Source of the DNA: an uncultured bacterium
GTDB lineage: Bacteria; Babelota; Babeliae; Babelales; Vermiphilaceae
Direction: 5' to 3'
DNA length: 64,000 nt
Assembly: GCA_963713925.1 (NCBI GenBank)
Contig: OY970212.1
Coordinates: 1,254,722 to 1,318,721, forward strand
Shown here: piece by piece, positions 21,311-22,843 of the stretch
Layout of the letters: each line of letters begins with the position of its first letter
Position numbering within the stretch: the first letter of the stretch is position 1
The notes under the pieces: generated by a model
What the model was told of the DNA's origin: nothing
Seen by the model: the letters and a program-made list of their open reading frames with translations, nothing else
The model's database searches: none
Made by a program: the position numbers and the translations under genes

Positions 21311-21355
21311 AAAAAAGAGACGTGGAAAACAGGATAGTTTTCCACGTCTCTTTTT
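21311..21355. terminator. Bidirectional terminator-like hairpin
   Basis: AAAAAGAGACGTGGAAAAC...GTTTTCCACGTCTCTTTTT. Confidence 0.75.
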
Positions 21356-21501
21356 GTGTAATTTTTTTAAATATTCTTATTCTACTTCGCTGCCTAATGG
21401 CAGCTTCGAAGAACTCCGCGCTCAATGACTTTTCAATTAGAGCTTATACGAAAATTAAGCTTTCTAACTAAAAAGTAATTGTGTTAAAAGTCAATTAATT
21501 T

Positions 21502-22443
21502 TTAAGCACTACATACTTCGCCCTTTTTCAAGATAACATTTGCAATGATGATCAGCTTTCGCATTACTGCAACAATAGCTACTTTAAAGCTTTTTTTGTT
21601 TGCTATTAGTCGATCATAAAAGGATTTTAAAGGAGCATAATACTTAATAGTCGTTATAGCACACATATATAATGCATTTCGAGGAATAATCCTACCGCCT
21701 TGAATGAACCGTTTGCCTGTATAGTTGCCACTTTCTCGATCGTAAGGACAAACTCCGACAAGGGCTGCTATTTCATTATTGCTTACAGATCCAAGTTCAG
21801 GCACAAACGAAATCAATATCGCGGCCGAAGATTTACCGATTCCCGGGATTGATTCCAAAAGCTCTGTCCGTTTCTGCAGTACCGCATCTTGATCAATCAA
21901 TTCTTCAATTTGTTCATCCAAAGCCTTGATCTCTTTATTTAAAAAGAGGATCATTCTTTCGATACTTGAAACACCGAGTGCATGCGAGGGGTGTTTAAGT
22001 CGAGTTTTTTCAGTTGCCAAAAATTTGGTCAAATCCTGCTTTCGATTAACCAAAGATAGCAATGTTTCTTGGTTATGAGTTCTGCTGACTGGCTCATAAT
22101 CTTGAGAATTCTTCGATGCAAATTCAGCAATTTTTTGTGCGTCTATTTTGTCTGTTTTGCTTTTGCAACCAGTTGCGATTATAAAACCCTTTATCCTCCG
22201 TGGATCAACTATCCAACAACTATAGGAATGTTCCTGTAATACCCGAGTAAGCAATTTTTCGTAACCACCGGTTGCCTCACATGCAATTTGCTTAATACTG
22301 TAATTGGATAATTGCTTCACAAACTTTTTTATTCCGCTTTCTGTATTGGGTATTTTAACCCATTGCTTCAACGGATGAATAAAAATGTCCAAATTGTTCT
22401 TTGAAATATCGACGCCGATAAATACTTCTGGTAGGGTAATCAT
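21502..22443 (-). CDS. IS110-family DEDD recombinase/transposase
   Basis: IGVDISK, CEATGGYE, KTDKIDA RuvC-like DEDD residues; SIPGIG and RESG (catalytic Ser) Tnp domain. Confidence 0.96.
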   Translation of the reverse strand: MITLPEVFIGVDISKNNLDIFIHPLKQWVKIPNTESGIKKFVKQLSNYSIKQIACEATGGYEKLLTRVLQEHSYSCWIVDPRRIKGFIIATGCKSKTDKIDAQKIAEFASKNSQDYEPVSRTHNQETLLSLVNRKQDLTKFLATEKTRLKHPSHALGVSSIERMILFLNKEIKALDEQIEELIDQDAVLQKRTELLESIPGIGKSSAAILISFVPELGSVSNNEIAALVGVCPYDRESGNYTGKRFIQGGRIIPRNALYMCAITTIKYYAPLKSFYDRLIANKKSFKVAIVAVMRKLIIIANVILKKGEVCSA

Positions 22444-22452
22444 AAATACCTC

Positions 22453-22627
22453 ATCCTTGTAAACATTCGAGGTCGTATTAATACGCCTCTAGTAATTGTT
22501 CGAGGTAATTTCGTATAAGCTGATAGTCTCAAACTTTTTAGCAATCGATTACGATTAGGGTTGGCGCGAGCTCTATCAGCTTTTCCCGAGCAACTAATTT
22601 GTGAAACAATATACCGATCACAAATTA
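22453..22627 (-). ncRNA. IS110 bridge (seek) RNA
   Basis: 5' hairpin (AAUUUGUGA/UCACAAAUU), target-binding loop closed by AAGCUGAUAG/CUAUCAGCUU, then a donor-binding loop. All four guides match the flanks or ends. Exact 5'/3' ends are approximate. Confidence 0.88.
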
Positions 22628-22843
22628 ATACATTATCTATCAAAATTTGAATCAATTTTTAACATACAAGGGTTGGCTGTCAAGAGGCACTTGTTTCAGC
22701 AACTTGTCCGCCGTAGCTTACCAATCCTGAAAGCCTGGATAAGCGAAGGCTGGATCCATGTTAAGTAGATCCTGAAATAAATTCAGGATGACATAGCAAT
22801 AAGGAACTTTCGGGATTTTCGGATAAGCTCTTAGATGAGCGCT

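Follow-up and report, generated by a model that had tools for sequence, protein, structure and literature searches.

The insertion sequence and its recombinase

The window (the whole stretch of DNA analysed, 64,000 nucleotides) contains an insertion sequence lodged in a smaller dispersed repeat. The insertion sequence has these features:

21474..22670, minus strand: IS110 (IS621-group) insertion sequence, 1,197 bp counting both CT cores
21502..22443, minus strand: putative bridge recombinase gene, 313 aa, with D12/E56/D98/D101 and S238
22643..22664, partner 21482-21503: short imperfect subterminal inverted repeat (sTIR), 73% over 22 nt with an 8-bp perfect core

The limits of the element are set by three genomic copies that are 100, 100 and 99.8% identical across exactly this span, with flanks that differ. 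The window's copy (copy 1) lies at C1:1276195-1277391, an identical second copy at C1:678445-679641, and a third, with two substitutions, at C1:1121218-1122414. Each is exactly 1,197 bp long, and all encode one identical 313-aa protein. A first-pass annotation had drawn the span as 21474..22677; its start stands, but the element ends at 22670, and 22671-22677 is host flank. CT is present at both ends of the element, and empty copies of the host repeat join the left and right target at a single CT. Insertion at a short core, without target duplication past it, is a feature of the IS110 group (IS621-like), and the element displays it.

The IS110 group has been defined by a long upstream non-coding region and an sTIR that is absent or short and imperfect (PMC11187229). 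Here 225 nt of non-coding sequence lie upstream of the gene versus 26 nt downstream, and the sTIR is short and imperfect; on sequence features, the element is a member of the IS110 group (IS621-like). Membership of the IS1111 group was rejected, the element having neither the downstream non-coding region nor the 11-13-bp near-perfect sTIR of that group.

The encoded protein matches PF01548 and PF02371 at 69 and 51.6 bits (cut-offs 29 and 21.3) and NF033542 at 197.7 bits (cut-off 140). Its only relatives of solved structure are ISCro4 and IS621 chains (E about 1e-38), with ISCro4 the best hit (PDB 9t56, E 1.8e-38) and IS621 reaching a phmmer E of 1e-37. D12, E56, D98, D101 and S238 line up with the catalytic motifs of IS621, and an alignment of 60 homologs, drawn from 120 listed proteins, shows no variation at any of the five. 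The predicted protein is an IS110 family recombinase with all five catalytic residues (D-E-D-D plus serine). The best 119 homologs are 59-72% identical to it, and one at 65% is named from Candidatus Dependentiae. The first-pass annotation had singled the protein out as compact, but 313 aa is ordinary, because IS110 recombinases span about 300-460 aa (PMC11208160); most of these 119 homologs have 311-320 aa, and the solved IS621 chain has 328 residues.

The interrupted repeat

The repeat that hosts the element is split into two parts:

22671..22830, minus strand: left part of the host MITE, with an IS5-type terminal inverted repeat (TIR), hairpin modules and the left target (22671-22677)
21440..21473, minus strand: right part of the host MITE, with the right target (21468-21473) and the right TIR
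21437..21439, plus strand, partner 22831-22833: 3-bp target-site duplication TTA of the host MITE, by the identical-flank rule of TIR pairs

The repeat is dispersed, intergenic and 140-270 bp long, with terminal inverted repeats and an interior of REP-like hairpin modules, and the source genome holds about 26 copies of the family. Identical 3-bp flanks, almost all TAA or TTA, were found in 14 of 18 TIR pairs (16 of 20 initial pairs, after removal of three linker pairings and one weak pair, and two pairs added manually). Of 261 genomes of the phylum, 59 contain the TIR with a TWA flank, against 2 hits in total for a reversed control, and 83 contain the inner hairpins. The target-bearing part of the MITE, among the matches listed, is found in the source genome only. 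The same TIRs surround different hairpin cargo in other genomes of the phylum (L144, L149, L151, L161, L168-L170).

Four relatives carry elements of 861-877 bp with the same TIR (L141:1504-2367, L154:5-881, L166:126-989 and L167:111-971). Two of these were scanned, and both encode IS5 transposases above the NF033580 cut-off, making such autonomous IS5-family elements candidate mobilisers of the MITE. With TIRs and a duplication in common with an autonomous IS5 element, and with no coding capacity, the host repeat is by its sequence an IS5-family MITE. An IS5-type transposase was not found in the source genome (95.75% complete) with four Pfam models and a relative's protein. A short Y1 (IS200-type) transposase fragment is the sole hit of its kind there (L123 C1:735855-735944). 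Just past the window's MITE lies a small palindromic repeat (21377-21433) with 3-4 relatives elsewhere in the genome, followed by a 19-bp terminator-like stem (21312-21355).

A predicted bridge RNA in the upstream non-coding end

The non-coding end upstream of the gene, together with the opposite end of the element, holds the following predicted features:

22445..22655, minus strand: predicted bridge RNA, with a 5' hairpin, a target-binding loop and a donor-binding loop; 5' end placed from the -10 box
22591..22631, minus strand: 5' stem-loop of the predicted RNA, from a single-sequence fold
22661..22666, minus strand: -10-like hexamer in the left end, candidate half of a circle-junction promoter
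21489..21494, minus strand: -35-like hexamer in the right end, candidate other half

Folded as a single sequence over 22446-22655, the predicted RNA gives a 5' hairpin followed by two stem-loops, with the guides in internal loops (z -3.26, reached by none of 200 shuffles; z -2.9 in another fold run). When 16 orthologs are folded to a consensus, 96% of cells in the two-loop core remain paired, against 31-38% in slid controls, and 11 of 32 pairs are altered on both sides, which 0 of 500 shuffles reach; these figures are inflated because the orthologs are related. A covariance model built from the ortholog alignment was run on 32 more distant loci outside its training set and located the RNA upstream of the gene in 20. 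Folding and a covariance-model search, two of the checks that the first-pass annotation had suggested, recovered the two-loop fold, and in the source genome the model matches the three element copies only, with no orphan bridge RNA found. Rfam holds no family for the RNA; its 16 weak hits are chance matches away from it. The predicted structure is of the IS621 type, a 5' hairpin (here from the single-sequence fold) and two stem-loops with internal loops.

The -35-like and -10-like boxes come to lie 17 nt apart only when the two ends are joined, the arrangement described for the sigma-70 promoter at the IS621 circle junction (PMC11208160). This is a sequence match, with the -10 box agreeing with consensus at 4/6 positions, and boxes of this kind are frequent in AT-rich DNA (2 found versus 4.8 in shuffles). 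With a promoter here, transcription of the RNA would begin near 22654, some 27 nt ahead of the range given in the first-pass annotation. The window's copy alone has, in its MITE flank, a TTGACA placed 17 nt ahead of a weak -10-like hexamer of the left end (22655-22683, minus strand); a sigma-70-like site over flank and left end, considered for read-through of the linear form, was not above chance and was rejected. Directly upstream of the start codon, a GAGG that is invariant in 16 of 16 sequences lies in the donor-loop stem. One might guess that this stem controls translation by covering the GAGG.

Four guides match the insertion site and the element's own ends

Within the predicted RNA, guide and handshake bases are assigned as follows:

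22557..22565, minus strand: left target guide (LTG), equal to 22669-22677
22534..22541, minus strand: right target guide (RTG), complementary to 21468-21475; 7 nt in the 14-bp model plus one further paired base
22532..22533, minus strand: target-loop handshake guide UU, placed by analogy with IS621 positions 81-82 (PMC11208158)
22491..22499, minus strand: left donor guide (LDG), equal to 21474-21482
22456..22466, minus strand: right donor guide (RDG), 22456-22460 plus either 22461 (continuous) or 22465-22466 (discontinuous)
22454..22455, minus strand: donor-loop handshake guide GA, adjoining the RDG

All four guide matches that the first-pass annotation had read are present, in the order LTG-RTG-LDG-RDG along the RNA. 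None of the guide strings is repeated within the 225-nt left non-coding end. When this end was put through 20,000 dinucleotide shuffles, single matches arose at frequencies of 0.0001 (LTG), 0.008 (RTG), 0.001 (LDG) and 0.039 (RDG), and two or more together in only 7 of the 20,000, so that the set is far above chance. The target is R-CCAACC-CT-TTTTA(G). It had been predicted as GCCAACC-CT-TTTTAG; the first base is G only at the window's copy and A at the other two, and the eighth RTG base lies beyond the 14-bp IS621-model target, its pairing being unreliable in orthologs.

The RDG, earlier read as a continuous UACAAG, is indeed complementary to the left end in that register (22456-22461 with 22665-22670). 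A discontinuous register, spanning a 4-nt bulge as in the pairing reported for IS621 (PMC11208160), is equally conserved, each register being kept in 15 of 15 orthologs. After strand exchange, the first U of the target-loop handshake guide can pair with donor position 7 (A), and the G of the donor-loop handshake guide can pair with target position 7 (C).

The linker between the loops (22509-22521, minus strand) shares 13 contiguous bases with the IS5-type TIR of the MITE (21441-21453, plus strand), as did 2 of 1,500 shuffles. After insertion, linker and right TIR form a 1,083-bp inverted pair around the recombinase gene. We considered this identity as a fifth guide and rejected it: four of the bases lie in a stem, the geometry does not suit the RTG duplex, and orthologs that use other targets have similar linkers. 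The identity is probably due to chance or ancestry.

Target guides covary with the flanks of orthologs

Of 26 loci parsed, all with 54% identity or more, we retained 15 distinct elements. Each bridge RNA is represented by one locus, which for multicopy elements is the first listed, and L038 was left out since it has no left flank. With the core excluded, LTGs score 67 against their own left flanks, compared to 38.6 +/- 4.3 when permuted, and RTGs score 66 against their own flanks, compared to 32.6 +/- 4.7; in neither case did any of 100,000 permutations reach the observed value. The LTG and RTG of the present element match 6/6 and 5/5 positions of its own flanks and at most 3 and 2 of those of others. 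The base that follows the RDG, the donor-loop handshake base, can pair with target position 7 in every one of the 15 orthologs (permutation p 7e-4). These permutation tests overstate independence because the orthologs are kin. The target-loop handshake base agrees with donor position 7 in 14 of 15 orthologs, a count that is uninformative as the base is nearly invariant; LDG and right end agree at position 6 in all 15 (T/T in two, C/C in 13).

Target guides that covary with the target, donor guides that match the donor, and handshake guides make this, at the sequence level, an IS621-type system. Family hits, catalytic residues, fold and guide-flank covariation all bear out the IS621 bridge-RNA architecture proposed in the first-pass annotation. 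Its claim of a new specificity is right in that the element has a target of its own, but is overstated as novelty: nearly every ortholog has its own target, and two rows of Durrant's alignment carry this 9-nt LTG together with another RTG.

Many orthologs are inserted in MITE-type inner hairpins rather than at the site used here. Since these hairpins are found across the phylum, whereas the target-bearing part, among the matches listed, is found here only, the target loop has apparently been retargeted in this lineage. Only 4 of the 15 ortholog representatives occupy mismatch-free sites, and relatives often sit at sites with 1-6 mismatches; strict discrimination is therefore not a property of the clade. 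In five ortholog copies (L031, L033, L018, L003 and L002) the flank matches one target guide only, marking candidate natural half-match insertions. Mismatch tolerance and half-match insertion have been reported (bioRxiv 10.64898/2026.08.31.748434), and the ortholog mismatches fit that account. The L013 IS110 element has an 18-bp tandem duplication of its left end from the core, possibly a donor-into-donor or half-match event. At the right ends of two more distant orthologs (L004 and L023), donor guide and right junction seem register-shifted relative to the CT core.

Occupied and empty sites in one genome

The first-pass annotation had asked whether other genomic copies share the target. They do: all three near-identical copies interrupt the MITE at the same base, 34 bp inside one end. 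Between the three host MITEs there are 8-13 substitutions in the left part, and one of the hosts is without a module of about 53 bp (53 gap columns), while the IS copies are 0-2 bases apart. The copies therefore represent three independent insertions, not one copied composite.

The whole genome was scored against the guide-predicted 15-mer, with G:T wobble allowed. The three occupied sites have no mismatch and are the only such sites in the genome, two of them using a G:T wobble at position 1; among empty sites genome-wide, none is free of mismatches, 5 have one and 26 have two. A profile of the MITE end gave 32 hits, of which six IS-junction halves and three other-module hits were dropped, leaving 23 empty copies. 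All 23 are mismatched, ten of them at exactly one position of the 14-bp model, and the cause in these ten is often a T-tract one base longer or shorter. Occupied and empty copies thus differ in perfect matching by 3/3 versus 0/23 (Fisher p 3.8e-4), or 3/3 versus 0/10 if only one-mismatch copies are counted (p 0.0035). This shows that the element prefers perfect sites, with three events too few to establish strict fidelity. The three copies, the multicopy MITE as target and the handshake base pairing with target position 7, all read from the sequence, go beyond the first-pass annotation.

Base pairing may not be the sole determinant of the site. A DNA hairpin of the MITE could act as a second one, as reported for ISPpu10 (bioRxiv 10.64898/2026.03.19.712850): in 3/3 occupied sites the left target has hairpin modules immediately on its 5' side, and non-MITE sites, all of them empty, are among the 15 genome sites with fewest mismatches. 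Yet the folds of the three occupied sites are unlike one another, and those of empty copies are as good or better. Every non-MITE site has at least one mismatch, and base pairing alone therefore explains the pattern. We consider a contribution of the hairpin unlikely.

The guides might instead record the past function of an element that has recently died, and two of its copies, being identical, could be old duplicates. This is very unlikely: the reading frame is open with all catalytic residues intact, the protein is identical in three copies, and parts of the element appear in contigs from two other DNA studies, next to the left flank seen in the window (X1) or the right flank of the second copy (X2). 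The first-pass description of an apparently intact, on-target element is in line with the open frame, the catalytic residues and three recent copies on guide-matching sites. A single insertion, after which IS5 transposase or gene conversion copied MITE and IS together and left occupancy uninformative about the guides, is scarcely credible: the window's MITE and one other occupied MITE do retain both TIRs and the 3-bp duplication, so that a composite could be an IS5 substrate, but the hosts are of different MITE subtypes, as the substitutions and the gap show, and the searches described above found no IS5-type transposase in the source genome.

A model for guided insertion into the MITE

We think it very probable that this is a recently active IS621-group IS110 element whose guide RNA specifies one site in a MITE. 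As in IS621, read-through transcription would produce a circle of the element; contigs from three DNA runs contained no joint, a result that is uninformative about circles. The circle would join the right-end -35 box to the left-end -10 box, from which a bridge RNA of about 200 nt may be transcribed. Its donor loop would pair with the joined ends and its target loop with both strands of the 14-15-bp site, 34 bp inside the MITE end, and a composite active site of RuvC and serine residues would then recombine the two at the CT core. The handshake bases could form two pairs after top-strand exchange versus one before, so that insertion would be favoured, the direction reported in PMC13626964. The MITEs may serve as harmless intergenic landing sites, as REPs do for IS621, and all three guide-matching sites without a mismatch are now filled by the element.

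A more speculative reading, which we regard as doubtful, is that the bridge system is "pre-optimised" (a 7-8-nt RTG, a canonical RDG and an insertion-favouring handshake), discriminates single mismatches and has saturated its perfect sites. Slippage of the MITE T-tract, from five T's to four, six or more, would then be a means of escape in an arms race of guide versus target between two parasites. If so, the clade, with 15 target loops on one scaffold, would be a series of natural reprogrammings from which high-fidelity recombinases could be drawn.

Apart from that speculation, the element offers a natural and well-controlled case of bridge-RNA targeting, in which a single genome shows the predicted target and donor, the handshake bases, the empty sites and the mismatched decoys. 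It also draws attention to an AT-rich clade of more than 100 recombinases (59-72% identical), a clade that seems tied to Dependentiae-like intracellular bacteria and in which target loops were reprogrammed many times. The mechanism itself remains as described in 2024, and the element is a reasonable candidate for ortholog screens and mismatch-tolerance tests.

Comparison with known systems

The element resembles IS621 of Escherichia coli (PMC11208160, PMC11208158, PMC13626964) in its DEDD plus serine recombinase, its CT core, an upstream non-coding end with a 5' hairpin and two loops, handshake bases and a repeat element as natural target, and it may also share the sigma-70 promoter at the circle junction. 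It differs in its distant protein, its longer 5' region (the 225-nt left end) and its natural RTG of 7-8 nt, where wild-type IS621 is described with 4 nt. It also has a canonical pair in place of the G161:dT12 of IS621, and it inserts in the subterminal region of an IS5-type MITE, where IS621 uses a REP. Both long RTGs and reprogramming in nature have been noted (PMC11208160 and PMC11187229), and 5,511 natural bRNA-target pairs have been catalogued (PMC11208158). The clade's exact scaffold, donor and full-target motifs were not found in the portions of Durrant's supplements available, where alignment gaps could hide them. We found no paper on IS110 in Dependentiae or on insertion sequences in Babelota, in a search that was thin on subscription papers.

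ISCro4 / IS622 (bioRxiv 10.1101/2025.05.14.653916; PDB 9t56), the best hit of solved structure, shares the same architecture. Ortholog screens are routine and often negative; in that report, only 18 of 72 orthologs yielded product. ISCro4 is 88% identical to IS621 and active in human cells, whereas the present element is known from sequence alone.

IS1384 is an IS5-family element. IS1383 inserts into the inverted repeats of IS1384, and IS4321/IS5075 into those of Tn21 (reference titles in PMC11208158); ISPpu9 and ISPpu10 insert into repeats (ISPpu10 in bioRxiv 10.64898/2026.03.19.712850). Like the present element, these IS110-family elements hit the ends of mobile elements or repeats, but they are reported to hit the inverted repeat itself or a REP, while the site here lies 34 bp inside the MITE end. 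Coxiella burnetii IS1111, in an intracellular bacterium, is an IS110-family element that occupies one position of a MITE, QMITE2, in 20 of 21 copies (PMC5896051). It differs in belonging to the IS1111 group, with a downstream non-coding region and an 11-13-bp sTIR, and in its target, a GTAG REP within QMITE2; guides are not analysed in the available text of that paper. The targeting of repeats, MITEs and transposon ends is thus already in print, and the element described here is not a new system but a real example of the bridge-RNA mechanism described in 2024.
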